Part shown: positions 12,567 through 41,887 of the stretch, piece after piece | Layout of the letters: every line of letters starts with the position of its first letter | Numbering within the stretch: position 1 is the stretch's first letter | DNA from: an uncultured Alphaproteobacteria bacterium | Lineage (GTDB): Bacteria; Pseudomonadota; Alphaproteobacteria; Sphingomonadales; Sphingomonadaceae | Assembly: GCA_963815345.1 (NCBI GenBank) | Contig: CAWFGF010000002.1 | Coordinates: forward strand, 484,169-548,168 | Reading direction: 5' to 3' | DNA length: 64,000 nucleotides | The notes under the pieces: model-generated | What the model was told of the DNA's origin: nothing | What the model saw: the letters and a program-made list of their open reading frames with translations, nothing else | Databases searched by the model: none | Position numbers and translations under genes: made by a program

Positions 12567-12691
12567 ATCTCGAATCCGCATGGGTTCGCTTGCTTCCGCA
12601 TACATCCGTAAAACTCAATTAAAACAGAATGATGTGAGTGATTCGCGTCCGCTTGCGTGCGCATGCATTCGCTTGAAGCCGGATTTGGTTT

Positions 12692-12743: not shown

Positions 12744-12744
12744 A

Positions 12745-13998: not shown

Positions 13999-14005
13999 CC
14001 TGCTC

Positions 14006-14796: not shown

Positions 14797-14934
14797 TGAA
14801 TTACCTTTCACCTTGCCTCCATCCGCAAGAGAACATAAATAGAACGCATGGGTGTAGGAAAACGTTTTTTGCAAGTTTATCCGAGAGAAGAGGGGTTCGT
14901 TTGGAGGGGGCAATTGTGAGGCGATGGAGCTGGT

Positions 14935-15849: not shown

Positions 15850-15924
15850 AGGAGAGAGAGCTTCTCGAATTCCTGATCCGGCAGAGGGCCTGTCCCGATG
15901 CCCTCATCAGGAGGACGAATTGCC

Positions 15925-18900
15925 ATGTTTCAGTCAGACTTGTTTCCCGCCGGCGAGCAGATACCGGCAGTGCCCCTGGCCTTCGCCATCGGTGCCCGGA
16001 TTGCCGCGCTTCTCACCTCGGGTCGTCATCTTACCCGTGCCGACATTTCCGGGCTGTTCGCCGAAGAGACCGGCGCCCTTGACTGGGGAAGCGCCTGGAG
16101 CATCGACGACTACAATAACGCGGTCGAGATCGGGGCGCTGCTCTGGCTTCGCGAATCTTCGCGCATAGACCTGGCGACCAGCGTGCACGAAACCGAAGCG
16201 CGGTTCGACTGGCTCGAAGCAGCCTTGCCGCCCCGGCACGTTCGCAGCGAAGGACAGGTCGAGCTCCAGCAGTTCTCGACCCCGCCGATGCTGGCCTGGC
16301 TGATGGCAAAGGCCGCAGCCATCTCTGCGCACGACACGCTACTCGAACCCTCCGCCGGGAATGGCGCCCTCGCTCTCTGGGGCAGCCTCCAGGACGCCTC
16401 GTTGGTCCTCAACGAGATCGATCTGGCAAGACGAAACGGGCTGGGCCATATCTTCCCCGCGGCCACGATCACTGCGCATGACGGGGAACTGATCGCCGAC
16501 CTGCTTCGCAGCCCGGTTCCATCGGTCGTGCTAATGAACCCGCCATTCGCTCATAGCCATGAACGCGGCGAGGACCGCGAGACCGCTATGCGTCACCTGC
16601 GCGGTGCGATCCGAGCGGCTGCGAATGGGGCGAGGATAGTCGCCATCATGCCCGATGGCTTTGACGCTTCCACATTCGCCAAAGCACAGGACGAAGCGTC
16701 GCTCCTGATTAATGTCCGCTTGGAGCAGATGTTTCGCCGGACAGGGACGGGGATCGCCGTTCGCCTGGTCGTGATCGACAAGACGCAGACTGCGTCTTCG
16801 CCCGCGATCACCGGAGACACCTGCGACCTGGTCGAGCTCCACGAGCTTATCACCGCACTTCCGCGCCGCGCGCAAACACCCGCCAGCCTCCATCGCTTGC
16901 CGTTCAGCAAGCCAATTCGCCGAGTTGGCAAGACTTCGACCCAACGCACTCCGGTCCGTCCGGTGGCGCCTTTCGCAGCGACAGCAGCAGCCAAGGCGAA
17001 TGCGACCACTCTTGCCTATTCGGTCTTGGCCAACTCCGCGCCGGTACCTGAACAGACAGGCATCTACCTGCCTTACCGGCCCAGTCGCATCGCGTTCGAA
17101 GGCGCTCCGGCCCATCCCACCCCGCTCGTGGAATCGGTCGCTATGGGTTCGGTCGCGGCTCCGCAGCCGGAAGTGCGGCCTCGTCTTCCCACCAACTGGC
17201 AGGCCGATGGCCTTTTATCCGAGGCTCAGTGCGAGACACTGGTCTACGCTGCCCAGGCATTCGCGCGCGACCTACCGGGCCAGTTCAAGGTCAGCCAGGA
17301 GGGCACTGCGCTGGAACTGTCCGAAGACGGTCATGAATACCGCCAAGGCTTTTTCCTCGGTGACGGGACCGGAGCGGGCAAGGGACGGCAAATCGCAGCG
17401 GTCATCATGGACCGCTGGCTCGCCAGCGAGCGTCGCCATATCTGGATCACGAAGAACGAGGCGCTGCTCGAAGATGCGCGCCGCGACTGGGAAGCGCTTG
17501 GCGGGCTGCCGCTCGATCTCCAGCCGCTCTCGCGCTGGAAACTCGGCCACCCCGTGACGATGTCCGAAGGCATTCTCTTCGTCACCTATCCAACGCTGCG
17601 CTCGGGACGCGCTGAGGATACGCGGCTCGACCAGATCCTTGCCTGGGCGGGCGAGGATTTCGACGGCGTGATCGCCTTTGACGAAGCCCACGCGATGGCC
17701 AATGCGCTTGGGGGCTCTTCAACCCGCGGCAAGGTCAAGGGCTCCGAACAGGGCATGGCGGGCCTCAGGTTGCAAAACCATCTCCCACGCGCCCGCGTGC
17801 TCTACGCGTCTGCCACCGGCGCTTCGGATATCGCCAACCTCGGTTACACCTCACGGCTTGGCTTATGGGGACCCGAGACTGCTTTCCCGACCCATGAGGC
17901 GTTCATGACAGAGATCCGCGCTGGCGGCGTCGCGGCGATGGAGCTCGTCGCCCGCGACCTCAAGGCTCAGGGCCTCTATCTTGCTCGTGCGTTGTCCTTC
18001 GCCGGGGTTGAGTACGAGATCCTCGAACACAGCCTGACCGAAGCGCAGGTCAAAATCTATGACGCCTACGCCGATGCCTGGGCGATCATTCACCGCAATC
18101 TCGAAGCAGCGCTCGAAGCAACCCGCGTGGTCGACGAGGACAGCGGCGACACGCTCAATCGCAACGCCAAGGCTGCGGCGCTGTCGATCTTCGAAGGCAC
18201 CAAGCAGCGCTTCTTTGCCCAGCTTCTGCTCTCGATGAAATTGCCGAGCTTGATCCCCGCGATGGAAGCGGCGCTGGGCGAAGACCATTCGGTAGTCGTG
18301 CAGCTGGTCTCGACCGCCGAGGCCATGCTCGACCGGCGTCTCGCCGACCTATCCGACGAGGAACGCGAAGCGCTCGATATCGATCTGTCCCCGCGTGAAT
18401 ATGTCATCGACTACCTTAGCAAGAGCTTTCCGGTGCGTTTGATGCAGGTCTTCGCCGACGAGGATGGCAATCTTCGTTCCGAGGCAATGAGCGACGAGGA
18501 GGGCAATCCCGTTTTCTGCCCGCGCGCCATGGCCGCGCGCGATGCGCTGATCGAACAGCTCTGCGCACTGCCGCCCATCGCTACCGCGCTCGATGCGATC
18601 ATCGAGCACTTCGGAACCGAGGCCGTCGCCGAGGTTACGGGCCGGACCCGCAGGCTGGTGATCGGACGCGATGGTCAGCAATGCCTCGAACGGCGTAGCC
18701 CCAGCGCCAATGTCGCCGAAGCGCAAAGCTTTATGGAAGGCACCAAGCGCATCCTGGTATTCTCGGACGCCGGCGGCACGGGTCGATCTTACCATGCCGA
18801 CTTGGGCGCCAGGAACCAGCAGCGCCGGGTCCATTTCCTGCTCGAGCCGGGCTGGCGCGCCGACAACGCCATCCAAGGTCTTGGCCGTACCAACCGCACT

Positions 18901-20172
18901 AACCAGGCATCCGCGCCGCTGTTCCGCCCGGTTACCACAGACGTAAAGGGCGAACGCCGGTTCATCTCGACCATTGCGCGAAGGCTCGATGCATTGGGCG
19001 CGCTTACTCGTGGCCAGCGCCAGACCGGCGGACAGAACCTGTTCGACCCGGCAGACAATCTCGAAAGCGACTACGCGCGCGAAGCGCTCAGCCGCTGGTT
19101 CCAGCTGCTCTATGACGGCAAGCTCGAGGCCACGAGCTTCGGCAATTTCGTCGAGCGGACCGGCCTCCGACTTGAAAGCCCCGATGGCGGATTGACCGAT
19201 AATCTCCCCACGATCCAACGCTGGCTCAACCGCATTCTCGCGCTGCCGATCGCGCTCCAGAACGCCATATTCGACGAATACCTTGGTCTCGTCGAAGCGC
19301 GGATCGAAGCTGCGCGTGAAGCCGGAACGCTTGATCAGGGACTGGAAACCGTGAGGGTCGATCGCTTCACGGTCCTCGCCGATGAACTCCTGCGCACAGA
19401 CCCCGTGACCGGTGCCGAGACCCGTCTCGTCTCGCTCGAAGTGACGAAGCACCTTCGGCCTCTGCGATTGAAGCGCCTGGTGCGGATGCACGAGATTGGC
19501 AGTACGCACGCGATCCCGATGCGCAATGCGCGCTCGGGCAAGGTCGCGCTGTCGGTTCCGACCCGCCGCCTCATCGCCGACGACGGGGCAGTGATCGAAC
19601 GCCGACGCCTTTTGCGCCCGCTCAACTCCGCGAACTGGACAATCGAGGCACTCGCTGAAAGCCACTGGGAAGATATTGGCGTCACCGCATTCACGAGGGC
19701 CTGGCGTGCCGAGGAAGAGCAAGCGGCCAAGTCACCGGTGACCGAGCGCGTGCATCTCGCCACCGGACTGTTGCTTCCGGTCTGGAAGCGCCTGCCAGGC
19801 GATCATGTCCGCGTCACCCGGCTCGTTGCCGAGGACGGTCAGTCGATCATCGGCCGCGAAGTGCTCGATGTCGATCTCGCCGCAATCGCCGAGACCTTTG
19901 GCCTTTCCGGAGTTGCCGGACCATCGGCTGAGCAGATCGGCGAGCTCGTCATCGCCAGCGGCAAGCCGCTGGGCCTCGCAAGCCACGATGCCTTGACCGT
20001 CAAGCGATCACTGGTCGGCGGCGAGCAGCGCCTTGAACTGACCGGTTTCTCGCCGGATCGCCTCGACTGGTACAAGGGCAAGGGCTGCTTCACCGAGATC
20101 ATCCGTTACCGCACGCGGCTGTTCGTGCCAGTCTCCGCAGCCTCGTCCGTTCTTCCCACGCTTGCCGCCTGA
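15925..20172 (+). CDS. Fusion of an N6-adenine DNA methyltransferase and a strawberry-notch/SF2-like helicase (about 1415 aa)
   Basis: MTase motif I LLEPSAGNGALAL and motif IV VVLMNPPFA. Helicase Walker A GDGTGAGKGRQIA and motif II VIAFDEAHAMAN. AGGAGG lies 10 nt before ATG 15925. Confidence 0.8.
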   Translation: MFQSDLFPAGEQIPAVPLAFAIGARIAALLTSGRHLTRADISGLFAEETGALDWGSAWSIDDYNNAVEIGALLWLRESSRIDLATSVHETEARFDWLEAALPPRHVRSEGQVELQQFSTPPMLAWLMAKAAAISAHDTLLEPSAGNGALALWGSLQDASLVLNEIDLARRNGLGHIFPAATITAHDGELIADLLRSPVPSVVLMNPPFAHSHERGEDRETAMRHLRGAIRAAANGARIVAIMPDGFDASTFAKAQDEASLLINVRLEQMFRRTGTGIAVRLVVIDKTQTASSPAITGDTCDLVELHELITALPRRAQTPASLHRLPFSKPIRRVGKTSTQRTPVRPVAPFAATAAAKANATTLAYSVLANSAPVPEQTGIYLPYRPSRIAFEGAPAHPTPLVESVAMGSVAAPQPEVRPRLPTNWQADGLLSEAQCETLVYAAQAFARDLPGQFKVSQEGTALELSEDGHEYRQGFFLGDGTGAGKGRQIAAVIMDRWLASERRHIWITKNEALLEDARRDWEALGGLPLDLQPLSRWKLGHPVTMSEGILFVTYPTLRSGRAEDTRLDQILAWAGEDFDGVIAFDEAHAMANALGGSSTRGKVKGSEQGMAGLRLQNHLPRARVLYASATGASDIANLGYTSRLGLWGPETAFPTHEAFMTEIRAGGVAAMELVARDLKAQGLYLARALSFAGVEYEILEHSLTEAQVKIYDAYADAWAIIHRNLEAALEATRVVDEDSGDTLNRNAKAAALSIFEGTKQRFFAQLLLSMKLPSLIPAMEAALGEDHSVVVQLVSTAEAMLDRRLADLSDEEREALDIDLSPREYVIDYLSKSFPVRLMQVFADEDGNLRSEAMSDEEGNPVFCPRAMAARDALIEQLCALPPIATALDAIIEHFGTEAVAEVTGRTRRLVIGRDGQQCLERRSPSANVAEAQSFMEGTKRILVFSDAGGTGRSYHADLGARNQQRRVHFLLEPGWRADNAIQGLGRTNRTNQASAPLFRPVTTDVKGERRFISTIARRLDALGALTRGQRQTGGQNLFDPADNLESDYAREALSRWFQLLYDGKLEATSFGNFVERTGLRLESPDGGLTDNLPTIQRWLNRILALPIALQNAIFDEYLGLVEARIEAAREAGTLDQGLETVRVDRFTVLADELLRTDPVTGAETRLVSLEVTKHLRPLRLKRLVRMHEIGSTHAIPMRNARSGKVALSVPTRRLIADDGAVIERRRLLRPLNSANWTIEALAESHWEDIGVTAFTRAWRAEEEQAAKSPVTERVHLATGLLLPVWKRLPGDHVRVTRLVAEDGQSIIGREVLDVDLAAIAETFGLSGVAGPSAEQIGELVIASGKPLGLASHDALTVKRSLVGGEQRLELTGFSPDRLDWYKGKGCFTEIIRYRTRLFVPVSAASSVLPTLAA

Positions 20173-20275
20173 TCGCTCGGGCCGACCCCAACTCAGAATG
20201 AGAGTGGAGGGAGCCCTTTGGGCTTGTGGGCCTCGTGATCCTCACCTGCGCCTTCATTCCATCAGGAGAACACCC

Positions 20276-22249
20276 ATGATCCAGTCAATTCCCTTGAAGA
20301 AGCTCGTCCCGAGCCCGCGAAACGTTCGCAAGTCTAGCGACGTGCTGGCCGACCTCCAGCTACGGGCAGACATCGCTGTGCGCGGACTGCTGCAGAATCT
20401 CGTCGTGCGCAAAGGAAAGCGCGGCAAGTTCGAGGTCGAGGCCGGAGGTCGCCGTCTCGCCGCGCTGCAGGCGCTGGCCGAAGAGGGCACTTTACCCGAA
20501 AGCCATGAGGTCACCTGCCTCGTCATCGAAGGCGACGAAAGCGAAGTGCGAGAAGCCAGCCTTGCCGAGAACTTCCAGCGTCTCGCAATGAACCCGGCCG
20601 ACGAGGCACAGGCCTTCGCCTCCATCATCGAGGCAGGGGCTACCACGGAAGACGTGGCGCGCCGCTTCGGCCTCACCGTCCGGTTCGTCGAAGGGCGCCT
20701 GCGTTTGGCAAGTCTCGCACCCTGCGTCTTCGAAGCACTCGCCGAGGGCACGATCACGCTCGACATGGCCAAGGCCTATGGCGCGATCTCCGACGTGGAG
20801 CGTCAGGCACATGTCTATGCCGAGCTGCAGGACGCCTGGTACCAGATCACGCCTGACACCATCCGCCGCATGGTGCTCGATGCCACGGTCCGCGGTTCCG
20901 ATCCGCGTGCCGTGCTCGTCGGACGCGATGCCTACCTCGCCGCGGGTGGCCGGATTGAACGCGAACTGTTCGACGACGATGCCAGTGAAAGCTGGATCGA
21001 TATCGCGCTGCTCGAGGACCTCGCGCACAAGGCCATGGACGAAGCCGCAGAAAAGACCGCACTTGAATATGGACTTGCCTGGGTTCGGCCGACGCTTGGC
21101 AACTACGTCAGCCATGACCTCATCGAAGGTCTGGGCCGCTTACCATGCGAGCCTGCACCGATGACCGAACAAGAAGCGCAAAAGCTCGGCGAACTTGAGG
21201 CCGACTACGACCGCGTCGCCGCCGTGCTCGAAGACGAGGACAGCGACGAGGATGAGGTCGCCAAGGCCGAACAGGAACTCGTGGTAATCGACCGCGCCAT
21301 GCGCGCGATCAATGATCGGCCGCCGGTACTCGCCGACGAGCTGAAATCCGAAGCTGGCGCCTTCCTAGTCCTCTCGCGAAATGGCGAGCCGACATTGGTC
21401 CAGCAATACTACACCGAGACCGAAGTCATCGCTGACGAATGTGTGGTCGAGGCCGTCGAGGAGAGCGGAGCGGCGAAGCCTAAAGGGAGCTCGCTGTCCC
21501 AGCGCCTGCTCGACGAGCTCGCGATGCAGCGCCGCGACATCCTCGCGATCCATCTCGCAAACGATCCGGCACTGGCACTCGACTTCATGGTCTTCACGCT
21601 CGCCGATGCCGATGGGCACGACTGGCACGCGAAGAAAGCGTCGACGCTTGTCGGATCGGTAGCGTCCGGCCCGGTCACCGGGTTTGAGGCCAAGGATGCG
21701 CCGGCGAGTGCTGCTTTGGCCGAATTCGCGGGGTCGCTCGATGAAAGCTGGCGTGCTGGCGAGAGCGATGTCGAGCGGTTTGCCAGGTTCCGGGCGCTTA
21801 CCGACGAGGCGCGCTCGGCCTGGCTTGGTCATGTCGTCTCGCGTGCACTCGTTGCCAGTCTTGCCTGCGAAGGCGAGCGTTCGGTGCCGATGCACGAGGC
21901 GCTCGGCTCGCTCCTTGAAATCGAGACCGCGCAATGGTGGCGTCCCACGGCGAACAACTACTTTGACCGAGTGGCTAAGGCCCGCACGCTCGAAGCGCTC
22001 GATGCCGCCGGCGGTCCCGAACTGGTCAGTCGCTATGCAGCCTCCAAGAAAACCGAACTGGCGAGCGCAGCCGAGCGCATCTTCTCGGGCAACTTCATTG
22101 GCGAGCCCGAGGTCAAGGAACGGGCGCAGGCCTGGGTGCCTTCGATCATGCGTTTCGCCGGTGCCGAGCAGGTCGCACCGGTTGCCGCTGAAGGTGACGA
22201 GCCGGTCAGCGACGACGCGACTGACGAAATTGCCGAGCAGGCTGCCTGA
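20276..22249 (+). CDS. ParB/Srx-domain protein (ICE/plasmid ParB-like, long acidic C-terminus)
   Basis: PLKKLVPSPRNVRK, LLQNLVV and VEAGGRRLAAL (ParB GxRR box). AGGAGA lies before ATG 20276. Confidence 0.8.
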   Translation: MIQSIPLKKLVPSPRNVRKSSDVLADLQLRADIAVRGLLQNLVVRKGKRGKFEVEAGGRRLAALQALAEEGTLPESHEVTCLVIEGDESEVREASLAENFQRLAMNPADEAQAFASIIEAGATTEDVARRFGLTVRFVEGRLRLASLAPCVFEALAEGTITLDMAKAYGAISDVERQAHVYAELQDAWYQITPDTIRRMVLDATVRGSDPRAVLVGRDAYLAAGGRIERELFDDDASESWIDIALLEDLAHKAMDEAAEKTALEYGLAWVRPTLGNYVSHDLIEGLGRLPCEPAPMTEQEAQKLGELEADYDRVAAVLEDEDSDEDEVAKAEQELVVIDRAMRAINDRPPVLADELKSEAGAFLVLSRNGEPTLVQQYYTETEVIADECVVEAVEESGAAKPKGSSLSQRLLDELAMQRRDILAIHLANDPALALDFMVFTLADADGHDWHAKKASTLVGSVASGPVTGFEAKDAPASAALAEFAGSLDESWRAGESDVERFARFRALTDEARSAWLGHVVSRALVASLACEGERSVPMHEALGSLLEIETAQWWRPTANNYFDRVAKARTLEALDAAGGPELVSRYAASKKTELASAAERIFSGNFIGEPEVKERAQAWVPSIMRFAGAEQVAPVAAEGDEPVSDDATDEIAEQAA

Positions 22250-22280
22250 CCCCTCCTGACAGGTCCAGGTCACTCGGCGG

Positions 22281-22313
22281 GCGGTCCGTCCCAATCGGGA
22301 CGGGCCGCTTTTT
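22281..22313 (+). terminator. Rho-independent terminator after the parB-like gene
   Basis: 12-bp stem gcggtccgtccc-aatc-gggacgggccgc followed by TTTTT. Confidence 0.7.
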
Positions 22314-22638
22314 CCATGTCAAATTTTGGGCCGTTAGAGGACAGTCTGCTTTCGTCAAAAAATGCAGCGAAGCGGATTTCTTGTTTCTCCAGCCGGCGGC
22401 GCATTGTGACCATAGCGAAAGGTGACTGTCCCATCAGCGAATGAGATCCTGTTCCGGTTGCGGGGCAGCTATACGGCAATTCGTGGGGAGGTCTGCGTCG
22501 CAATGCGCCTAGCGTGTGAGCCATCGCCGTGTTCCTCTCAGGAATTTTATCAATTGTTTATTTTCTTTACGCAATTGCTTCGAGTTCAATAACGACTACT
22601 GTTGATCCTAACGACATTCTTTCGGCCGAATAGAAATT

Positions 22639-23637
22639 ATGAAACCCAACTTCGCAAGAATGATCTACACGCTCGACGACGATGATCTTGAGCGGTTGAT
22701 CGATGATTGGGTTGGTCACAAGACATCCAAATACCATAGTAGCGAGATCTTTGCCGGCGCGGGAGACATGGGCAGGGACGTCGTCGGTTACCGGACCGCC
22801 TCTAAACTGGAAGGGCCCTGGGACAACTTTCAATGCAAGCAGTTAAAAAAGACCCTGACGAGGCCAGACATGCTTCGCGAGCTTGCCAAGATCTTTTACT
22901 ACAGTAGCCAAGGGCACTTCAGCCTTCCAGCAAGATACACATTTGTCGCCCCTACAGGCATAAACCGTCGAGCGACGGAACTGCTTACGCACCCCACGAA
23001 ACTTGCTGCAGCTCTTAAGGAAGAATGGAATGCCGTCTGCGCCAGTCACATTTCTGACGGCGTAGTCATCAATTTGGACCCTGCATTGGAGGCGATGATT
23101 GATGGCTTCGATTTCAACAACGTTGACAGTTTGGATGCTACAAGGTTGGCGAACGATCCGTCCATGAAGCCGGTCCTGGTGGATTGGTTTGGCGCGGATC
23201 CAGGGGCTCCGCCACGAGGCTCGACTCCTGAGGAAATTCAACCTGAGGAAACGAAATACCTAGAGCAACTGGTTGCAGCATATGGCCAGCGGCGCGGCAC
23301 TCCTTACGCAGATGCAACGGCAGCACTGGAATGCAGCGAGTATGGCGGGCGCTTAAAGGATCAGCGCACACGATTTTTCGAAGCCGCGCGATTCAAGCGA
23401 TACTATCGGGACAACACACCTGGAGAGGTCCTTCAGTCCTTTGAAGACGACGTCTATCACTCAGTGATTGAAACCTATCATGCCAATCACGCAGATGTAT
23501 TGGCCAAGGTAGATGCGGTGATGGAGCGTGCCGCTGCAATCTCAGTTACCGGCGTGCTGCACAAGTATGCTCGCGTGCCGGTTCGGCAGGGGACTTGCCA
23601 CCATTTCGCAAATGACGGGGTGTTGGAATGGAAGTGA
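22639..23637 (+). CDS. PD-(D/E)xK / Mrr-like nuclease-domain effector with an uncharacterised C-terminal domain (LmuA / ABC-3C effector-like)
   Basis: N-terminal motif GAGDMGRDVVGY...WDNFQCKQ (D43/D47...Q65-C-K67), as in the Mrr catalytic core. First gene of a translationally coupled trio. AT-richer than the flanks. Confidence 0.6.
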   Translation: MKPNFARMIYTLDDDDLERLIDDWVGHKTSKYHSSEIFAGAGDMGRDVVGYRTASKLEGPWDNFQCKQLKKTLTRPDMLRELAKIFYYSSQGHFSLPARYTFVAPTGINRRATELLTHPTKLAAALKEEWNAVCASHISDGVVINLDPALEAMIDGFDFNNVDSLDATRLANDPSMKPVLVDWFGADPGAPPRGSTPEEIQPEETKYLEQLVAAYGQRRGTPYADATAALECSEYGGRLKDQRTRFFEAARFKRYYRDNTPGEVLQSFEDDVYHSVIETYHANHADVLAKVDAVMERAAAISVTGVLHKYARVPVRQGTCHHFANDGVLEWK

Positions 23638-24125
23638 CCAAGTCAGATCGGCACAGCCCCTTTAACTCCACCGTAGAGACCGGCTTACGCGCCCTGATCG
23701 TGTTGGAGGCAATGTACCCTCGAAGGTGCAGTTTGGATGAGTTGACTTGGTTCGACTACTTGGTGGTTCACACTAGTGATATGGAGGGTCCAGAAAGCCT
23801 CCATCCTGATTTCGAAGCGAGTGTCGGAGAAATGCTTATTCGTCGGCGCTTAGTTGAAGAGAGCATTGCACTTTTGAGGAAGCTACATCTCGTTGTCGCG
23901 GACTATCATGATGGCTTAAACTATCTGCCTGGCGATGAAGCCCCTGCAATCATCGACCTACTGACTTCGACATACAATCAGAAATTGAAGGCCAGGGCGA
24001 ATTGGGTGGCGCAGACCTTTCAGAATTTCGACTCCGCCGAAGTGGAGGAAATTTTTGCTGACCGCATCGGGAGATGGACGGCGGAATTCCATGCGGATGA
24101 ACAGGCTACGAGTGCACAGCCGTGA
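23628..24125 (+). CDS. Small helical middle component (LmuC / ABC-3C MC-like)
   Basis: 165 aa. Its ATG overlaps the stop of the upstream gene by 10 nt, and its stop overlaps the GTG of the downstream ATPase (GTGA). The call rests on position and size only. Confidence 0.45.
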   Translation: MEVTKSDRHSPFNSTVETGLRALIVLEAMYPRRCSLDELTWFDYLVVHTSDMEGPESLHPDFEASVGEMLIRRRLVEESIALLRKLHLVVADYHDGLNYLPGDEAPAIIDLLTSTYNQKLKARANWVAQTFQNFDSAEVEEIFADRIGRWTAEFHADEQATSAQP

Positions 24126-26011
24126 CCGATCAGCGGATAATCTTACGGTTTATTGGGCTAACAGGGCCATCGCTTGAGCCAGCGCGCGTGGAGTTTTGTG
24201 ACGGCGTAAACGTCATTTTTGGCGCATCAAACACTGGCAAGTCCTTCACCTCAAAGTTGTTGAACTTCATGTTCGGGGGGCAAAGCCCATTGCCCGAAAT
24301 CGAGGAACGGCGAGGATATGACTCGGTCTTGTTGGGCCTGACGTTGCCGGAGCGTGGCGATTGCACACTATACCGTGCTGCCGCCGGTGGGGCCTTTCAG
24401 CTTTTTGCCGGCCTTCACCTCGAAAAGCCCGCCGACGGTTCTGGAGTGAGAATTGAGCCGAAGTTTGATGCCCGTAATCCGTCGAACATTTCGACTCTGC
24501 TGCTGGAAGAGATTGGTTTGGACGGGAAGAAGGTCGTTAGGAATGAAGATGGGGCGCACCTAAGTTTCACTATGCGAGTTCTCGCGCCTTATCTCTTCGC
24601 GGACGAAGAGGCGATCATTGCCGAGTTAAGTCCATTCCTCACAGGCAATAGAGACACCGCGACCGCAGAGAAGAACGGGTTGCGGCTGATGCTTACTGGA
24701 CAGGACGATAGCGCCGTTGTCCCAGTGCAGCCGCAGAAGGTTCGGAAGGCACAGCAAGAAGGCAAGTATGATTTGGTCGAGGAGATGATCGCCGAGATCG
24801 ATGAAAGCCTCGGTGAGAATGCACCTGATAGAGAAGGCTTGAATGATCAGCTTGGCAAGCTCGAGAGCCGACTAAACGAATTTCAAACCGAAATCCTCCA
24901 GCGGCAAGAACAGCTCGACAAGATGACGGGCGCGAGACGAGAAATCAGGGATGCAATTTTTCAGTCGCGTGATCGAGCCAAAGAAGTCGGTCTGACCATT
25001 GAGAGATTTCTGCAGCTGGATCGCGTCTACCTTTCCGACTTGGAGCGATTGGAAGCTGTTGATGAGGGGGGGAGCATTTTGCTCGCGAGAGTTGGCCGTC
25101 CTTGCCCGCTCTGTGGTTCTGGGATCGACGCAAACTCACATTCCCATGGTCAGGATGAAATAGAGCTGGCCAGAACAGCGGCTCTTACCGAACAGAAGAA
25201 AATTCGGAACGAACGTCAACAACTCTTAGAGACTATAGCCGAGTTGAAGGAAGAGCAGTCGCTCCATGACCAAGAAATCGATCATCTAAGCCAGAAACTT
25301 CTCGAACTTCAGCAGATGATCGATGCTGAACTTCCTAAAGAAGCGAATTTTCGAGAACAGTATGAAGACCTCACCTCAGTTAGAGATGACGTTGTCGAGA
25401 AGCTGCGATTGTATAGGCAAAGGGATAGGCTGGCCGTAAGGCTGTCCGAATTCTCTGAGAAGGTTCCGCGCGGTCGTGGTGATGATAAGTTGAAAACCGG
25501 CATCGATGGCCCGACTGGGCACAAGTTTGCGCAGAAGGTCCAAGAGGTTTTGGAGGCATGGAATTTCCCGAATGCTCCGATTGTTTCCTTCGATCCTGAG
25601 CACCAGGATATCCAAATTAATGGGAAGGCTCGTTCGGCTAACGGCAAAGGTGTCAGAGCCATCCTACACACTGCATCGAAGCTCGCCCTGCTCCTCTTCT
25701 GCCAAGAAAAAGGTCTGCCTCATCCTGGGCTCCTTGTGCTCGATACCCCGTTGCTGACTTACCGCGAGCCAATGCACAATCCGAAGTATGGTGAACTTGA
25801 TGACGATGAGAAGATGCTCAAGTCAACGACACTGCAAGAGAGCTTCTACAGGCATCTCATTTCGCTGAAGGGTAAAGCCCAGTTCATCATCTTGGAGAAC
25901 ACAGATCCGCCAGAGGCTGAAGCCTCAAATATGAATCGTATTGTATTCACAGGGGAAGAAGGCCGAGGGCGTTTCGGCTTCTTTCCTACAAAATCTAGCA
26001 AATTGAACTGA
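24122..26011 (+). CDS. SMC/Rad50-like ABC ATPase with coiled-coil insert (LmuB / DUF3732-like)
   Basis: Walker A GASNTGKS (aa 34-41). E/Q/L/K-rich helical middle with CPLCG (aa 328-332) near its centre. Walker B LLVLDTP (aa 537-543) and QFIILEN near the C-terminus. Confidence 0.7.
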   Translation: MTDQRIILRFIGLTGPSLEPARVEFCDGVNVIFGASNTGKSFTSKLLNFMFGGQSPLPEIEERRGYDSVLLGLTLPERGDCTLYRAAAGGAFQLFAGLHLEKPADGSGVRIEPKFDARNPSNISTLLLEEIGLDGKKVVRNEDGAHLSFTMRVLAPYLFADEEAIIAELSPFLTGNRDTATAEKNGLRLMLTGQDDSAVVPVQPQKVRKAQQEGKYDLVEEMIAEIDESLGENAPDREGLNDQLGKLESRLNEFQTEILQRQEQLDKMTGARREIRDAIFQSRDRAKEVGLTIERFLQLDRVYLSDLERLEAVDEGGSILLARVGRPCPLCGSGIDANSHSHGQDEIELARTAALTEQKKIRNERQQLLETIAELKEEQSLHDQEIDHLSQKLLELQQMIDAELPKEANFREQYEDLTSVRDDVVEKLRLYRQRDRLAVRLSEFSEKVPRGRGDDKLKTGIDGPTGHKFAQKVQEVLEAWNFPNAPIVSFDPEHQDIQINGKARSANGKGVRAILHTASKLALLLFCQEKGLPHPGLLVLDTPLLTYREPMHNPKYGELDDDEKMLKSTTLQESFYRHLISLKGKAQFIILENTDPPEAEASNMNRIVFTGEEGRGRFGFFPTKSSKLN

Positions 26012-26261
26012 AGCTCTTTTAGGCCGCTGATCAGTTCTCGCCGACTTCTCTCGCGACAAACTGGGTTCACCCGACAGGAAACGAGCCAGTGACGCTGCCT
26101 TCGGAGTGTAGGGTTCACCGAACGGCAGCTTCTATGTGAATATCGCACACACGTGAACGACCGAAATTGAGGGCGCATAGCGGTCATCATTGAAGGAGAG
26201 AGGAGGGAGCTTGGTCTTCCTGAGCCGGGACATCTCCGTTCCGGCGATCAGGAGATCTCCC

Positions 26262-27191
26262 ATGACCAAGTCCCGCCGCTCTGTTTCGACATCGCCAGCC
26301 CAGCGCATCACCGCCGCCATCATCGAGAAGCTCGAGCAAGGAACAAAACCCTGGGTCAAGCCGTGGCGAGGTGTGCCAGTCTCGCGGCCCTTGCGGTCCT
26401 GCGGGACACCCTATCGCGGCATGAACACTTTCTGGTTGTGGATGGTGGCCGATGGCTGTGGCTACGCCTCGCCCTACTGGATGACGTATCGCCAGTGCCA
26501 GAAACTCGGCGGACAGGTCCGCAAGGGTGAGAAATCGACCATCGCGATCTTCTACAAGAGCTACACCAAGGAGGTCGAGAACGCCGAAGGCGAAGCTGAC
26601 ACCGAGAACCGGCGCGTGCTCAAAGCCTATTCCGTGTTCAACGCGGATCAGTGCGACGGCCTCCCCGAGTTCTACCATCCCAAGCCACTCGTTGCCGCGC
26701 TTGAGCCCGAAGGACGCGAAGATCGCCTTGATGCCTTCTTTGCCGATATCGGCGCAGACCTGCGCCATCATGGTGCCCAGGCCTACTACGAGCCGCAGCG
26801 CGACCGGGTCACCATGCCTCCAGCCGAACTATTCGAAGCTTATGACCACTATTACGCGACACTCGCGCACGAGCTGTCGCACTGGACGGGGCATTCCTCG
26901 CGGCTCGATCGCGATCTCAAGAACCGCTTCGGCAGCGACGCCTATGCGGCCGAGGAACTGATCGCCGAACTTTCCTCGGCCATTCTCGGGGCCGAACTGG
27001 GTCTTCCCGTTACCCATCTCGACCATCACGCCAGCTACATCGCGTCTTGGCTCAAGATCCTCAAATCGGACGAGCGCGCGATCTTGACCGCGGCGGCCAA
27101 GGCCGAGGAAGCGGCCAGCCTGTTGCTTGACCTTGGGGGTTACCAATCTCTGGAAGGCGAGCCCGACATCGATCTTGCTGATGCAGCCTGA
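26262..27191 (+). CDS. ardC: ArdC-type antirestriction protein (ssDNA-binding N-domain + zincin metallopeptidase-like domain)
   Basis: ITAAIIEKLEQGTKPWVKPW, YRGMNTFWL and HELSHWTGH (HExxH). AGGAGA lies before ATG 26262. Confidence 0.85.
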   Translation: MTKSRRSVSTSPAQRITAAIIEKLEQGTKPWVKPWRGVPVSRPLRSCGTPYRGMNTFWLWMVADGCGYASPYWMTYRQCQKLGGQVRKGEKSTIAIFYKSYTKEVENAEGEADTENRRVLKAYSVFNADQCDGLPEFYHPKPLVAALEPEGREDRLDAFFADIGADLRHHGAQAYYEPQRDRVTMPPAELFEAYDHYYATLAHELSHWTGHSSRLDRDLKNRFGSDAYAAEELIAELSSAILGAELGLPVTHLDHHASYIASWLKILKSDERAILTAAAKAEEAASLLLDLGGYQSLEGEPDIDLADAA

Positions 27192-29409: not shown

Positions 29410-29808
29410 ATGACCAATATCGCAATCCTCACCGGCCGCATCGCTCGCGATCCCGACACCCGCGAGACCAAAGGCGGCACCAACGTTGCCGGGATCACAG
29501 TCGTCACCGATCGTCCCGCACGCGACAAGGACGGCAAGACCTACAAGGACGAGAACGGCTACACCGCCAAGGAAAGCGAGTTCCACCGGGTGACCTGCTT
29601 CAACGGCCTCGCCAAGACCGTCGGCCAATACTGCTCCAAGGGCCAGCTCGTCAGCGTCCAGGGCCGCATCCACTACACACAGTGGGAGGACAAGGACGGG
29701 GTTACCCGTTACGGAACCGAGATCCTCGCCGACAAGGTCGACTTCCTCTCCCGCGGCAATGGGTCGGCCGACGAGAACGACAATACCGACGCTCCCGATA
29801 TCGACTGA
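29410..29808 (+). CDS. ssb: Single-stranded DNA-binding protein
   Basis: OB-fold N-terminus MTNIAILTGRIARDPDTRETKGGTNVAGITVV...FHRVTCFNGLAKTV...GQLVSVQGRIHYTQWEDKDG, with an acidic tail. Confidence 0.9.
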   Translation: MTNIAILTGRIARDPDTRETKGGTNVAGITVVTDRPARDKDGKTYKDENGYTAKESEFHRVTCFNGLAKTVGQYCSKGQLVSVQGRIHYTQWEDKDGVTRYGTEILADKVDFLSRGNGSADENDNTDAPDID

Positions 29809-30750: not shown

Positions 30751-31386
30751 CGTGTTCGCTGGCACTGGAGCGGGACGAAAAGCGGAGCGGGGCTGGGGTC
30801 GCGCTCGGTCCCGCCCCGCCTTCGGCGGTGCTCCTGCGGGCGCGGCCTTCTTGTTCTGGGCCCCGCACGCACGCCCGAACGACAGCGGGTCGGACCGGCG
30901 CGGTGCCGCGGGAACCGACAGGCCCCGGTCCCGGGCACCGCACGCGCTCCTTTGCCGCCGCCTTTGCGGGGTGTGCGGTCCTTGTGCGTGTTATTCATTC
31001 AAACGCAGATCAGGCTCAATTACGGTCGCGAACTGGATGCTCGCGCCTCCGAGGGCTCAGTTGGAAAATGCCTTAGAGAAAGGAGCGACCATGATCACTG
31101 GATTTCGCCGCACAATGGGGAACAGAATTGGCACACCGTACGCAGCGGGTGCTGCAATGGAAGGCGCGGAATTGCTTCACGAATTCACGAAAATGCGCTG
31201 ATACCATCTTCTGTGCCGGATGCGGTCCACTTGCTTTCTCGTCCGTGCCGAGTTGGCACAGATCCGTTTAATCTGCTGAAAAGCGATGTGAATTTTCCGT
31301 TTTCCTACACCCCATGCTGCGGCCTAGAGTGGCACTTGCCTTTCGAAGGGTGAGCCAGGTTCTTTGAACACAAGGAACTTGGAAAA
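30751..31386. other. Candidate oriT-containing intergenic region (between the leading-region genes and the RHH-traD-traI module)
   Basis: No convincing CDS. Octamer ttggcaca at 31128-35 and 31253-60; gtgcc-N5-ggcac at 31245-59; gtggcac at 31329-35. The nick site was not identified. Confidence 0.3.
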
Positions 31387-37941: not shown

Positions 37942-38706
37942 TATCGAGACGGCAGCTATGCGCCCCAATCCCAGACATAGCCATCCGGAATTCTGTCTCC
38001 TGAAAGCGGACATTGTTCGTGGCCATTCCGGCCAAGGAGAAGGAAGATGACATATTCACAATAAGCAGACGTTCGTTCTAACTAGCACTGACCAGTGGGA
38101 TATTGTAGGTTGGGCCGATGTTCGAGAAGCTCACCTTTTCTGCACGATTCGTTTGGAAAGGGCTATTGCATCTGTTTCGAACGCGAGACTGCGAAAAGTG
38201 TAACTCGCGCGGAAAATGCGATGAATGCCAATGGTTAGACGAAAATCCTTGGTGACCTGCGATCTTTCGTCAGCGATACTTGCATTCAGCGCGAGCCTTT
38301 CATTCTAAGCGTAATATATTACGAGGAGCTTATCTGAACATTATTTGAATGACGAGCTGACTCGGACCAAAACGTATTTTAATTTTGATTAATATAGTTC
38401 GTATGGAAATTCTGGACATCAAGATTATTTCTTTTAGCCAAGTTTATCATTGCAAAGCGTATGGCGGCCTCATGTCCATCGGAAAGCTTGGCTTTGTAGA
38501 AAAGTATGCGATGCAGCCTTATCCGATCTGAAGCGCAAACTTATTAACCCTATCTTATGCAATAGGATTTAGCACGAGCGATGCTCTTCCAATGCCAGAG
38601 TTCGCCGGTCGAAAGCAATTAGACTGGTATTCGAGTAGTCACGTTGTAAGCAACGTTAGCAGATGTAACGGCTTAGGATAACGAGAAGTCTTACGCCGGA
38701 GGATGT

Positions 38707-39777
38707 ATGACGATGTCGACTGACGAGATAGCTGACGGGCGGTCGGATTGCACACCTAAGTCAGAGAAGATCACAGCAAAATCCGGTGAGCGCCAAATCG
38801 CAGTTGACCGAGCCAAGGGCTTAGGCATCGCTTTAGTCGTTTGGGGGCATTTGGCGACGGCCGCCACACCTGGGTTACCAACTTGGTTCTACATATCGGT
38901 CACTGCAATCTACTCTTTTCATATGCCGCTCTTTATGTATCTCAGTGGATTTGTGTTTTTCCTGAGCAATAGCGATAAGCGATTTTGGGATACTCCAGCA
39001 CTCTATGTGTGGAAACGGTTCGACCGGCTGATGATACCGTGTGTAATATTTGCAATAGTCGTCATACTGGGCAAATATTTTCTGATGACTAACAATCCTT
39101 TTGGTTCGATAAATTATTTTTCGGATGCGATAGGGTCTGAATTTTTACAGACTTTGGAAAATACGCCCGGCAATCCCGTTCTGTCAATTTGGTATCTTAT
39201 AGTTCTGTTCATTTATTCACTAATAACACCATTCTTGACGCAATTCGTCCCAAAGGCGATTTACCTATTATGTTTTATTGGGCTAGTGTTGTGGCTTTTT
39301 AATTTTACAGAAAAATACTATATTGAAAGAATAGCGCAATATTTTATATTTTTCGCGGTCGGTGGGCTTATCGCTATACACAAAGATCGGATTTTGCCAT
39401 TGCTATCTGCGTATTACATTCCGGCTTTTATCGTGTTTGCCAGTTTGTGCTATCTCACATTGGGTAATGATTTAGCGCTATTGATTGTTGGCTTGGCATC
39501 TCTTCCGGCATTTCACGGTTTGTTTCTTCAAGCCTTCTGGAGAAAGGATAAATTATTTCTGTTCTTAGGAAAGAATTCTATGGCAATTTATCTTATAAAT
39601 ACAATCGTGATTGGGTTAGGACAAATTTTATATACGCGCTATTTCCCATATACGGAGGGTTGGTTCTTCGTTTATTCGCCGATCCTGTTTCTGTTTGGAT
39701 TGCTGGTTCCAATCGCCGTGCGTTACGCGCTTTCCATTAATTCCCGCCTGCAACCTGTGAGGCGATACATCGACTAA
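38707..39777 (+). CDS. Acyltransferase family 3 membrane protein (O-acyltransferase of surface glycans)
   Basis: VDRAKGLGIALVVWGHL...SFHMPLFMYLSGFVF and about 10 TM helices. Distinctly AT-rich codon usage compared with the ICE backbone. Confidence 0.8.
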   Translation: MTMSTDEIADGRSDCTPKSEKITAKSGERQIAVDRAKGLGIALVVWGHLATAATPGLPTWFYISVTAIYSFHMPLFMYLSGFVFFLSNSDKRFWDTPALYVWKRFDRLMIPCVIFAIVVILGKYFLMTNNPFGSINYFSDAIGSEFLQTLENTPGNPVLSIWYLIVLFIYSLITPFLTQFVPKAIYLLCFIGLVLWLFNFTEKYYIERIAQYFIFFAVGGLIAIHKDRILPLLSAYYIPAFIVFASLCYLTLGNDLALLIVGLASLPAFHGLFLQAFWRKDKLFLFLGKNSMAIYLINTIVIGLGQILYTRYFPYTEGWFFVYSPILFLFGLLVPIAVRYALSINSRLQPVRRYID

Positions 39778-39831
39778 GCAAATGTGGACCATGCCGATCT
39801 TGATTGCCTCACGCAAAAATCGCAGCGCAGT

Positions 39832-41286
39832 ATGACACTTGTTTTAGCAATTATCATATTGGCCAGCGTGCCGCTGTTCATTGCATTGCTGAAGCAGCAG
39901 GAGCGGTATCGCTTGTGGGCATTTACAGGTGTTGCGCTGGTCCCGTTAATTCCGGATTTGCCGGTGACAGGCTTCCTGTATGGCTGGCCCGCTTGGCTCG
40001 GCACAGTGAAAGGATTTGCCATCTCTTTTGGCGATGCACTTGCCATCGCGCTGCTCCTGTCGCGCCGAAAATATCTCAAGAAGCTGCCTTTCTGGCCCTT
40101 GCTATTGTTTTACGCACTTAGCTTGTTCATTTCGATCTTTGCCAGCACCAACTTGACCGCAACAATGTTTGTCTGGTGGCAGTTTGCACGAATGCTTCTT
40201 CTTTTTGTCGTTATATCGGGCGAGGCACATATTCCCGAAATCCGCGATCGCCTGATGACTGGACTTGCTCTTGGCCTCATTTACCAGTCCGGCCATGTCA
40301 TTATGCAGAAAGCTTCGGGTGTCGTGCGCGCGGCTGGAACATTTAATAGCCCGAACATGATCGGTATGGTGATGGAGCTTTCGGTTCTGACTTTGATCGG
40401 CGCTATCCTTGCAGGCAGCAAGAATAAGCTACTGTATCCTGGCGCTGTGGCAGGCATGATTTGCGCCGCCGGGACTGGTTCAAGAGCGACCCTAGCTTTT
40501 GCCGGAGCAGCTATCTTTAGCGTGTTACTGACCTCTTTGATACGCCGGTTCACTGCGCGCAAATTTAAGATTGTTATGGCGGCTGTCTTAGGGCTTGCGG
40601 TCACCAGCCCTTTTGCAATCGGCACTCTCAACGATCGTTTTCAGGGTTCGACCATGACGGGCCCTGATGAAGTAAGATTGGCTTTCGAGGAAGCTGCGCG
40701 GTCTATGGCGGCCGACTATCCGATCGGGGTAGGCGCGAATATGTTTATATGGAACTCAATTCATGGAGATTACGCTTCACGTGCCGGGGTATCATGGCAA
40801 GCGCAGGATCGGTCCAAACCCGTCCACAATGCCTATCTGTTAGCGCGAGCCGAAACTGGTTGGCACGGTGAAGTTGCCCTAATCCTGATGCTTCTCATAC
40901 CCATGCTGACTGCGCTGAGAATGGCGTTCGCAAACCGACAAACATCCTCTGGAGAATTGGCACTTGGGTGTGCTTTTGGTTTGCTTGCCAATATCGTGCA
41001 TAATAATTGGGAGTTCGATCTTCATTCGGCAGGCGTGCAAATCATTCTATTTATCAATCTCGGAATCATCGCTGCATTATGGCGAGAGTCGAGAATGCCA
41101 AAGGCTGAGAATGCAAGCAATCAGCATGGGACACTAAACGAAATTGGCAGGCCTAAGCTTGCTGGCTTTATGATCCATTCTCGAAAACCAAAAGTTGACC
41201 CTAAACCCGAAAAGCTTGGAAGAGTAACTAGACAGGGTCGGGCGAAGATTGCCGACTTCATGCTACCAATCAAAAAATCGCGCTAG
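39832..41286 (+). CDS. O-antigen ligase/polymerase-family (Wzy_C-like) membrane protein
   Basis: Polytopic membrane protein with GTGSRATLAFAGAAIF, a large loop and a basic C-terminal tail. AT-rich. ATG 39832 is preferred over GTG 39784. Confidence 0.7.
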   Translation: MTLVLAIIILASVPLFIALLKQQERYRLWAFTGVALVPLIPDLPVTGFLYGWPAWLGTVKGFAISFGDALAIALLLSRRKYLKKLPFWPLLLFYALSLFISIFASTNLTATMFVWWQFARMLLLFVVISGEAHIPEIRDRLMTGLALGLIYQSGHVIMQKASGVVRAAGTFNSPNMIGMVMELSVLTLIGAILAGSKNKLLYPGAVAGMICAAGTGSRATLAFAGAAIFSVLLTSLIRRFTARKFKIVMAAVLGLAVTSPFAIGTLNDRFQGSTMTGPDEVRLAFEEAARSMAADYPIGVGANMFIWNSIHGDYASRAGVSWQAQDRSKPVHNAYLLARAETGWHGEVALILMLLIPMLTALRMAFANRQTSSGELALGCAFGLLANIVHNNWEFDLHSAGVQIILFINLGIIAALWRESRMPKAENASNQHGTLNEIGRPKLAGFMIHSRKPKVDPKPEKLGRVTRQGRAKIADFMLPIKKSR

Positions 41287-41373
41287 CGCTTGAGACTGGA
41301 AGCAAATCTAGGGTGCGGAAGGCTTTGATTGCGAAGTTAGTTTTGTTTAAACTCTGACGGCTTGGTCCTCGAC

Positions 41374-41655
41374 CTAGAGATCGATCATTTGTGGCCAGCC
41401 CTCTGAATCGACGACATCACCTTCGCTGTTCTGTCCATTCAAACAGCGTATCGCTTCGAAAATCGTCGATTTTCCAGTTCCGCGACCTCCGATGATGCAG
41501 TTGAGGTTCGCGCAGAAATTGATCCCTTGCCTGGCCAGAAATCCATCATCGAGAAATATGGCGCGCACAAGTAGCACCTTGGCCGGAATATCTTCGTCAA
41601 TGCTAACGCGCGCATCGGCATCCTGCAGAGCGAGACGAAGCGCTTCGAAGGTATA
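41374..41655 (-). pseudogene. Internal fragment of a P-loop ATPase gene (Walker A region only)
   Basis: Open frame between TAG (comp. 41656-58) and TAG (comp. 41374-76) reads YTFEALRLALQDADARVSIDEDIPAKVLLVRAIFLDDGFLARQGINFCANLNCIIGGRGTGKSTIFEAIRCL. It then stops 21 codons later, with no start codon and no Walker B. Confidence 0.55.
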
Positions 41656-41887
41656 CTACATGATCAAACGTCATCTCGAACATCCAAGTATCTAAGCGAT
41701 GTCGTTTAATCGATTAGGCTATCAGCAGTCTTAAATTATCCGACGAGGATCAACAGCTGATAACAACCACAGTTACAATACCAAATTTGGCTGATTTTCC
41801 TTTTAATGAGGCGGATGAATGTCAGCTTTTCTAAAACCGCGCCTAAAAGCGGTCAGTCCGCTCCCGGCCCAAATGCCGACATTTGAA

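Follow-up and report, generated by a model that had tools for sequence, protein, structure and literature searches.

A predicted type II (short) Lamassu operon, very probably accessory cargo in a variable slot of a tRNA-Met-integrated conjugative element from Sphingomonadaceae

Lamassu systems, which consist of an effector (LmuA), a middle component (LmuC) and an SMC-like ATPase (LmuB) and belong to the ABC-three-component (ABC-3C) systems, are the closest described relatives of the operon reported here. The LmuACB system of Salmonella enterica (PDB 9hqu, 9hqx; 10.1101/2025.03.14.643221) has the gene order lmuA-lmuC-lmuB and falls in a published Lamassu sub-family with a LmuA C-terminal domain (CTD) of types CTD6-12, a middle component (MC) of types MC2-8 and a small LmuB. 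The DdmABC system of Vibrio cholerae (Lamassu Vc-Cap4; PDB 9ny1/9ny5/9uxh; PMC12663957, 10.1101/2025.06.23.660979) has the same three-component architecture and serves as the reference for abortive action against phages and plasmids. Short LmuB proteins with a Walker B of the form hhhhD[Q/S/T/E] and 0-2 CxxC hooks, as well as Mrr-type effectors, have been described (PMC12663957). PDDEXK and Mrr effectors, including one tested Lamassu-Mrr, were reported by Millman et al. 2022 (10.1101/2022.05.11.491447), where defence needed the ATPase, the effector and lmuC and worked by abortive infection. In the present work a window of 64,000 nt (the whole stretch of DNA analysed; contig CAWFGF010000002.1, positions 484,169 to 548,168, from an uncultured Alphaproteobacteria bacterium of the Sphingomonadaceae) was found to carry three overlapping genes which, judged from their sequences, form a complete and intact type II ('short') Lamassu system (ABC-3C, DdmABC-like) in the order LmuA-LmuC-LmuB. 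The trio is an ordinary member of a catalogued Lamassu subtype, with a restriction endonuclease (REase)-fold effector bearing CTD6, an MC2 middle component and a hook-bearing short LmuB, and the system itself is not new. Overall, the locus is very probably best explained as a Lamassu that forms accessory cargo of an integrative and conjugative element (ICE), where it fills a variable slot; the ICE is integrated at tRNA-Met in a Sphingomonadales/Erythrobacteraceae host. The genes of the operon are:

lmuA, 22639..23637, + strand: 332 aa; predicted PD-(D/E)xK-fold N-domain (~aa 1-195) and CTD6 (aa 204-331)
lmuC, 23628..24125, + strand: 165 aa; middle component of type MC2
lmuB, 24122..26011, + strand: 629 aa; short SMC/Rad50-like ABC ATPase with a CxxC hook in the middle of a helical insert

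An earlier note, made from the letters of this DNA, had called the trio an effector, a middle component and an SMC-like ATPase of ABC-3C or Lamassu/DdmABC architecture and had proposed PADLOC and hidden Markov model (HMM) searches as a check. These searches matched the LmuA, LmuC and LmuB models, full length in PADLOC (2023) for all three proteins, and the architecture was upheld. LmuA matched PADLOC model PDLC03852 (3.3e-86) and its residues 204-331 covered the full Pfam CTD6 profile (1.1e-27; 97.4 bits against a cut-off of 26.4). LmuC matched PDLC03871 (9.6e-46) and Pfam MC2 (1.7e-38; 132.2 bits against a cut-off of 26.9), while LmuB matched PDLC03863 over residues 6-623 (8.6e-162). The window trio is thus the same in kind as ABC-3C systems with a CTD6 effector and MC2 (PF20282/PF20288), on the strength of direct HMM matches. 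Reading of the sequence also bore out the three overlapping + strand open reading frames (ORFs) and their junctions: the lmuC ATG at 23628 lies 10 nt inside lmuA, and the lmuB GTG at 24122 overlaps the TGA of lmuC (GTGA). The start codons are credible because the N-termini of the three proteins match homologue N-termini in alignment. The motifs quoted by the note were all found at their residues, namely GDMGRDVVGY (42-51) and DNFQCK (62-67) in LmuA, and GASNTGKS (34-41), CPLCG (328-332) and LLVLDTP (537-543) in LmuB.

The N-domain of LmuA is a predicted PD-(D/E)xK-fold nuclease with the signature D47...Q65-x-K67 (+E81), a prediction with which consistent but weak fold matches agree. AlphaFold2 modelling gave a mean predicted local distance difference test (pLDDT) of 94.7 for the whole protein and 93.3 for the N-domain alone. 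The best structural match of the whole model was the solved LmuA 9ny1_C, and the fold of the N-domain matched the nuclease domains of Cap4 (prob 0.96), MspJI, HamA, Avs3, AF1548 and Can2. Residues D43, D47, Q65, K67 and E81 were invariant among homologues, and more than 500 homologues of ~333 aa had the same domains. The approximately 230 aa of ORF1 that had been left without assignment before correspond to CTD6 (aa 204-331) and to helical elaborations of the nuclease domain. In NCBIfam no model matched LmuA or LmuC, PDB searches with the single sequences of LmuA, LmuC and LmuB gave nothing significant (E = 0.076 for the Salmonella LmuB chain in the LmuB search), and the LmuA family profile had no match in PDB.

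For LmuB, a family profile built from 25 homologues matched the solved LmuB chain 9hqu_A first (3e-15), then 9ny5_D/9uxh (2.4e-7), and after these the heads of SMC, SbcC and Rad50. Residues G34, S36, G39, K40, D541, C328, C331 and G332 were invariant across the 25 homologues, down to 29% identity. The split ABC/SMC head that the earlier note had seen in ORF3 is supported by the invariant Walker A and B residues together with the profile matches, and its reading of CPLCG as a Rad50-type hook is consistent with the invariant C328-x-x-C331-G332. The Walker A GASNTGKS fits the pattern Gx4GK[ST]. The Walker B LLVLD-T (aa 537-542) has the short-Lamassu form hhhhD[Q/S/T/E], and the homologues have D-T or D-S. 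Residues 200-470 consisted to 49% of E/Q/K/R/L with few P/G, and the insert gave weak coiled-coil and ASRP matches. Membership in Rad50-Mre11, SbcCD, Wadjet (JetABCD) or MukBEF was rejected. LmuB scored 9-18 bits against Rad50/SMC NCBIfam models with cut-offs of 567-1087 and E ~0.08 against PADLOC JetC, its length of 629 aa is not above 850 aa, and its partners are CTD6 and MC2 proteins.

Compared with the Salmonella system, the trio has the same gene order and falls in the same sub-family. The Salmonella LmuB is likewise ~600-660 aa long, with a Zn hook and a non-canonical Walker B (LDQP there, LDTP here). However, Salmonella LmuA and LmuC had no sequence similarity to the LmuA and LmuC of the window and LmuB identity was low; the Salmonella effector is Cap4-type, whereas the window effector has a REase-fold domain without Pfam assignment. 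V. cholerae DdmABC differs in its CTD and MC types and in being chromosomal and not cargo of an ICE slot, and its LmuB lacks a Zn hook (PMC12663957), unlike the window LmuB with its invariant CxxC. The earlier suggestion that the trio may be an undescribed subtype was not borne out, as CTD6/MC2, hook-bearing LmuB and REase/Mrr effectors have all been published and RefSeq names such genes. The RefSeq labels on two plasmid homologues (H1 and H5) read 'ABC-three component system protein' and 'middle component 2', and both lie within defence islands. The nearest named protein was from Sphingorhabdus soli (84-86% identical to the window copy). A four-gene variant of the same family was observed on the Citrobacter sp. 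CRE-46 IncC/IncP plasmid NZ_CP029730.1 (locus L084, 6406-10854), where the genes for the ABC-3C CTD protein, MC2 and the ATPase follow a separate gene labelled 'restriction endonuclease'; this variant adjoins a Gabija-like AAA ATPase and helicase pair and lies near DUF932, ParB-family and DUF736 genes.

All three genes are under strong purifying selection, with ratios of non-synonymous to synonymous substitution (dN/dS) against the S. soli copy of 0.087 (lmuA), 0.096 (lmuC) and 0.125 (lmuB). As noted earlier, the block is AT-richer than the ICE backbone, with a GC content of 0.518 in the trio vs 0.611 in the ICE flanks; at third codon positions (GC3) the values were ~0.57 and ~0.73 for the ICE surroundings. 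Lower GC together with absence from 80 sister ICEs confirmed that the trio is a foreign insert next to establishment genes of the ICE. It sits, as the earlier note had placed it, between the terminator of a parB-like gene and ardC, which hairpin folding and the Pfam ArdcN/MPTase-PolyVal matches confirmed. The borders of this slot are:

parB-like gene, 20162..22249, + strand: Pfam ParB_N and HTH_ParB; backbone gene to the left of the slot
intrinsic terminator of the parB-like gene, 22272..22313, + strand: RNA hairpin of -30.3 kcal/mol (z = -4.95) followed by UUUUU; backbone, left slot border
ardC, 26262..27191, + strand: Pfam ArdcN and zincin MPTase-PolyVal; right backbone flank

The terminator, which an automated promoter and terminator scan had missed, was kept in all sister ICEs, empty and occupied. 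For ardC the mechanical ORF started at TTG 26190, and ATG 26262 is probably the true start, as alignment of sister ICEs and the conserved MTKSRR N-terminus favour it; the right frame of the slot then lies ~65 nt upstream.

A scan of one genome per species produced 80 sister loci (L001-L080) with a ParB-like protein 87-95% identical to that of the window and an ardC that was 80-99% identical. None of the 80 carried the trio. The comparison with ICEs lacking the insert, which the earlier note had proposed, showed that backbone homology stops at 22314 and restarts at 26195 against the empty site, and in all occupied sister loci the backbone was interrupted at these two positions (±2 nt). Between the stop of the parB-like gene and the start of ardC lay 166-170 nt in the five empty slots and, at the other extreme, more than 9.6 kb. 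More than 30 distinct, unrelated cargos were found in the slot, with genes on either strand, so that the co-orientation of the Lamassu with the backbone is not a property of the slot. Among 30 sampled large cargo proteins, 15 matched PADLOC defence models. The defence cargo included TIR-APAZ with short pAgo (SPARTA-like), QatC with a RmrA-like partner, Tmn, a PDC-M23B/Hachiman-like helicase, Gabija GajA/GajB, REase-APAZ pAgo, a different Lamassu, a methyltransferase with a LmuB-like ATPase, a CBASS E1-E2 protein and a Pycsar cyclase. Other cargo comprised an AcrB-type (RND efflux) pump, TonB-dependent receptors, an FTR1 permease, a MerA-like reductase, a TPR-PIN protein, an ORC/Cdc6-like protein and a DUF4238 protein. 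As unrelated defence and non-defence cargos share one fixed position, the slot is a hotspot for cargo in general, with defence systems a frequent part of it.

Fixed cargo slots between backbone genes are comparably found in the hotspots of SXT/R391 elements. Fixed intergenic slots of varying content, often with defence systems including Lamassu and Gabija, are also known from ICE and genomic-island hotspots (Pseudomonas PAPI/PAGI/LESGI, PMC12629846; a survey of chromosomally integrated mobile genetic elements, ciMGE, PMC10201445). The present slot differs in belonging to another ICE family, in holding metal and transport cargo too, and in that most cargos are framed by ~40-nt motifs, described below. 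The view that such a system would be unusual on a conjugative element was not sustained. LmuB homologues were found on 125 PLSDB plasmids, 76 predicted conjugative and 16 mobilizable, and in two plasmid examples their surroundings were defence islands with ParB-family genes nearby; surveys in the literature have recorded Lamassu in hotspots of ICEs and genomic islands (PMC12629846, PMC10201445). A 47%-identical CTD6/MC2-type Lamassu was also observed in a different ICE type of Sphingomonas sp. PAMC 26617 (JH594425.1, 5497-8881; locus L088), between a YAcAr/SLOG gene and DUF736 and near a TraF-like peptidase, SLT and TraD, again among establishment genes.

The insert itself was delimited as a cassette with identical end points in three unrelated flanks. 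Its parts, and the motifs that frame it, are given below; the frames were defined by aligning the cargo ends of sister ICEs, and a slash marks the cassette border.

Lamassu cassette, 22326..26181, + strand: 3,856 nt
conserved non-coding leader, 22326..22638, + strand: AT-rich in its proximal part (22525-22638)
weak hairpin 3' of lmuB, 26095..26128, + strand: -15.6 kcal/mol, z only -1.16; region kept in two other cassette copies
left frame motif LE, 22315..22354, + strand: CATGTCAAATT / TTGGGCCG..GACAGTC; the part from 22326 on travels with the cassette
right frame motif RE, 26152..26194, + strand: ..CCGAAATTGAGGGCGCATAGC / GGTCATCATTGAA; cassette end at 26181, backbone from 26195

The cassette thus consists of a 313-nt leader, the operon and a 170-nt trailer. 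It was 99.3% identical over 3,856 nt to positions 3683-7537 of L082, a metagenomic contig whose conjugative element is only 70-78% identical to the window ICE; there the cassette lies between a gene for an S24-peptidase repressor-like protein and hipBA with trwC. It was 82.3% identical over 3,858 nt to positions 8140-11992 of the S. soli chromosome (locus L081, VOPY01000001.1), close to a large serine recombinase. In a megablast search the cassette had no match among plasmids, and its termini had no terminal inverted repeats and no target-site duplications. The leader was 75.5% identical between the window and S. soli, while synonymous sites differed by ~42-56%; it was best conserved at ~22566-22625, with no codon periodicity and no conserved ORF. 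It is probably regulatory, and 22525-22638 is the likely promoter/operator region. A small ORF in the leader was considered and rejected, given the lack of codon periodicity and a minus-strand ORF of 84-95 aa that is interrupted in S. soli and runs past the border of the cassette. An Rfam scan of 22200-26300 gave no match. The hairpin at 26095..26128 is a possible operon terminator and is not significant on its own.

At the starts of most unrelated cargos the LE consensus was CATGTCAAATTTTGGGCCG-N-GAC.GTCCG, and at their ends the RE consensus was ..CCGAAATTGAGGGCGCATA(G/A)CGGTCATCATTGAA, also given as CCGAAATTGAGGGCGCATAGCGGTCATCATTGAA. In nhmmer searches the LE of the window had E = 2e-9, and 31 loci had LE matches of 1e-9 to 1e-5; the RE of the window had E = 2e-7, and ~31 loci whose cargo is unrelated had RE matches of 1e-7 to 1e-3. 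The matches lay almost only at slot borders, always with LE before RE on the parB-to-ardC strand. The cassette ends fall within the motifs, from TTGGGCCG... to ...GGGCGCATAGC, and the bases outside them are slot-specific. A second framed slot was found in the same ICE:

second LE..RE-framed slot, 37946..41872, - strand: RE on the minus strand at 37946 (E = 6e-3), LE-like motif at ~41872 by eye
cargo of the second slot: acyltransferase_3 (38707-39777) and Wzy_C (39784-41286)

This second slot lies between a 186-aa gene on the trwC side and a gene for a helix-turn-helix and S24-peptidase repressor-like protein (41888-42523, - strand); the equivalent slot in L082 holds the 99.3%-identical Lamassu cassette and hipBA. 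In S. soli the frames appeared nested (6950-13314): LE at 6950, DUF2188 and 208-aa genes, LE at 8140, the Lamassu, RE at 11965, a 359-aa gene and RE at 13281, which suggests one cassette inserted within another. A DUF3489-DUF2924-serine recombinase module was observed next to it (13709-16048). Several identities of the motifs were tried and rejected. LE and RE are not intrinsic parts of the Lamassu, being absent around homologues with 35-56% LmuB identity, nor structured elements, as they have no conserved secondary structure, nor parts of integron cassettes, as no attC-like hairpin occurs in LE or RE and no integron integrase in the window. In addition, LE and RE showed no resemblance to the tRNA/att region, and neither the window nor 88 loci (1.6 Mb of related DNA) contained RE-LE tandem junctions of the kind expected of cassette arrays.

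The remaining features place the cassette in its host element. The window holds an integrated conjugative element with a tRNA-Met site, an F-type type IV secretion system (T4SS) and a TrwC relaxase:

tRNA-Met, 12490-12566: ICE integration site
tyrosine integrase, 12745-13998: follows tRNA-Met, and is itself followed by a primase-like gene
helicase-like giant, between the primase-like and parB-like genes, + strand: 1424 aa, AAA_34 and Helicase_C_4 domains
ICE genes 3' of ardC: a SLOG/YAcAr gene, then ssb (29410-29808)
TrwB-type coupling protein, 32207-34021
TrwC relaxase, 34068-36977
F-type T4SS, 44126-60648, - strand

The 3' end of tRNA-Met was not repeated within the window, so the attR site lies outside it. 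Around the trio the primase-like gene, the helicase giant, the parB-like gene, ardC, the SLOG gene and ssb, all genes of leading-region type, are on the + strand. A leading region is the first-transferred side of the origin of transfer (oriT), with uniformly oriented genes (PMC11541004), and the label is plausible for the trio from gene content; it stays at that strength because oriT was not located. A search for an R388-like nic site gave only an unrelated site at 2806 with 3 mismatches and none in 31000-32200, and nothing stood out among the inverted repeats in 30900-32250. An oriT and a relaxosome accessory gene would most likely lie at 31000-32200. This is a low-GC intergenic stretch (GC 0.53 at 31000-31500) upstream of the coupling-protein and relaxase genes, and a 96-aa ORF in it (31387-31677) had no Pfam match. 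A literature search found no publication on this ICE family of Erythrobacteraceae/Sphingomonadaceae.

Some results weigh against the assignment of the trio as a working Lamassu and were set against the profile matches, the invariant residues and the slot comparison. The fold matches of the LmuA nuclease domain were coherent but weak, with a best E of 5e-3, TM-scores of 0.38-0.44 and none at or below 1e-3, and Pfam Mrr_cat had no match in LmuA at E <= 1. For these two reasons the domain is labelled PD-(D/E)xK-fold and not Mrr family: of the 'Mrr/PD-(D/E)xK-type' start read in the earlier note, the PD-(D/E)xK part stood with the fold matches and invariant residues, the Mrr part did not, and similarity to REases is at fold-class level only. 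Lamassu-Mrr and Lamassu-PDDEXK (10.1101/2022.05.11.491447) also have a REase-fold LmuA, but the window protein is without the Mrr_cat match. LmuB had no Pfam or NCBIfam match above cut-off, and its putative coiled coil is read from composition and weak coiled-coil matches only. The spacer before lmuA (22525-22638, 114 nt), called an AT-rich and promoter-like stretch in the earlier note, is indeed AT-rich (GC 0.377), but a consensus scan found no sigma-70-type promoter in it. Finally, the solved systems from which a mechanism can be borrowed are Cap4-type, and their LmuA and LmuC have no detectable similarity to the window proteins.

A mechanism was proposed from the homologous complexes solved for Salmonella and Vibrio (10.1101/2025.03.14.643221; PMC12663957; 10.1101/2025.06.23.660979). 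By analogy, two LmuB protomers, joined by the Zn hook and folded back, would hold one LmuA monomer inactive together with LmuC, the restraint being the sequestering of the LmuA C-terminal domain, here CTD6. LmuA would be released when, in the presence of ATP, free DNA ends or the replication intermediates of a phage or plasmid are bound, and it would then oligomerise through its CTD and bring the PD-(D/E)xK domains (D47, Q65-x-K67) together. The active oligomer would degrade DNA indiscriminately, so that the infection is aborted or the plasmid-bearing cell eliminated. For the ICE, the cassette would be a host-benefit and competitor-exclusion payload and not a transfer function.

Other explanations of the locus were weighed against the cargo reading. 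The same machine may have been selected for inter-element competition and stabilisation of the ICE, expressed early in the recipient, where it would eliminate incoming plasmids or rival ICEs or behave like an addiction module. Plasmid restriction by V. cholerae DdmABC, as cited in 10.1101/2025.03.14.643221 and PMC12663957, agrees with this, and the cassette is co-oriented with the primase-like, parB-like, ardC, SLOG and ssb genes upstream of the coupling protein and relaxase. Homologues also lie near ParB-family, DUF932, DUF736 or YAcAr genes on two plasmids and in another ICE type, and 76 of the 125 plasmids with LmuB homologues are conjugative. However, the cargo of sister slots, among it efflux, mer-like and iron-uptake genes, may point either way, so early expression has not shaped position and orientation. 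The cassette is also present in the other slot beside the relaxase in L082 and in the chromosomal island of S. soli, it brings its own conserved leader, and the searches within the window did not locate oriT. Such a role, which is not exclusive of phage defence, is possible but was considered rather doubtful.

A backbone function, with the trio as a Rad50/SbcCD-like DNA-processing module for transfer or establishment of the ICE, would fit the distant relation of LmuB to Rad50, SbcC and SMC heads and its place among DNA-handling establishment genes. It is contradicted by the absence of the trio from all 80 sister ICEs, whose parB-like gene is 87-95% identical and five of which have an empty slot, by the foreign composition of the block, by the lack of a Mre11/SbcD partner, by best matches to the defence-specific LmuA, LmuB and LmuC models and by Rad50/SMC NCBIfam scores far under the cut-offs, and it is scarcely credible. 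Nor does the cassette look like a decaying or inactive passenger, an explanation that is very unlikely, if slightly less so than a backbone function. The missing promoter consensus in the spacer and the shortened lmuC (97 aa) called in the 99.3%-identical copy of L082 point that way, but none of the three ORFs is broken and their junctions overlap, the residues invariant in the family are all there, dN/dS is 0.09-0.13 and the non-coding leader is more conserved than synonymous sites. The L082 lmuC call (5189-5482; 97 aa vs 165 aa in the window) may reflect either a frameshift or the use of another start. The reading retained is that of a Lamassu carried as slot cargo.

On how such cargo moves, Acinetobacter pdif modules with Xer-dependent integrative mobile elements exploiting Xer (IMEX), and integron cassettes, provide examples of gene modules bounded by short conserved sites in different replicons. 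The framed cassettes are alike in being discrete modules in different replicons, but differ from pdif/IMEX modules in that complete 28-nt sites are not found at their borders. By eye, the RE core GGGGCGCATAA resembles the XerC arm of dif (10/11) and the outer LE CCATGTCAAAT the XerD arm (8/11); on its right side the cassette ends where the XerC-like arm does. Neither border has a complete 28-nt dif-like site and the putative central regions differ, so the resemblance was taken only as a lead. Tentatively, and with some doubt, the Lamassu may be cargo of a class of mobile cassettes, so far undescribed and bounded by short motifs, in the mobile elements of Sphingomonadales; the cassettes would be framed on the left by ..TTGGGCCG-N-GAC.GTCCGCTTT.. 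and on the right by ..CCGAAATTG.GGGCGCATAGC, with defence, metal resistance and transport cargos. The same framed unit was found, its end points identical, in the parB/ardC slot here, in the relaxase-proximal slot of a diverged element and, in a chromosomal island, nested within a second framed unit. The exchange could be site-specific, perhaps Xer-like, or could proceed by homologous recombination through the frames as short homology arms.

Several large slot proteins had no PADLOC match and little or no Pfam annotation (L037:12734-14260, L016:13562-16036, L009:12384-19583 and L020:14234-18043, all on the - strand; also L059, L005 and L035). Among them are a 509-aa protein of L037 without any match, the 825-aa DUF4238 protein of L016, a five-gene operon with an ORC/Cdc6-like ATPase in L009 and a 1270-aa TPR and PIN protein (TPR-GreAB-C-PIN) in L020. 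Because of their neighbours these are candidate uncharacterised defence systems.

As a compact model of a non-Cap4 Lamassu, the window copy could be of use. The ICE family with its sharply delimited slot is widespread, in marine and soil settings, and the slot samples at least 10 known defence system types and many unassigned large proteins, which makes it a ready-made place to seek new defence genes. The frames, and one cassette with the same ends in three contexts, raise the question of how defence cassettes move between mobile elements. If the cassette class is real, a dedicated cassette-exchange mechanism would stock the slots of these ICEs.

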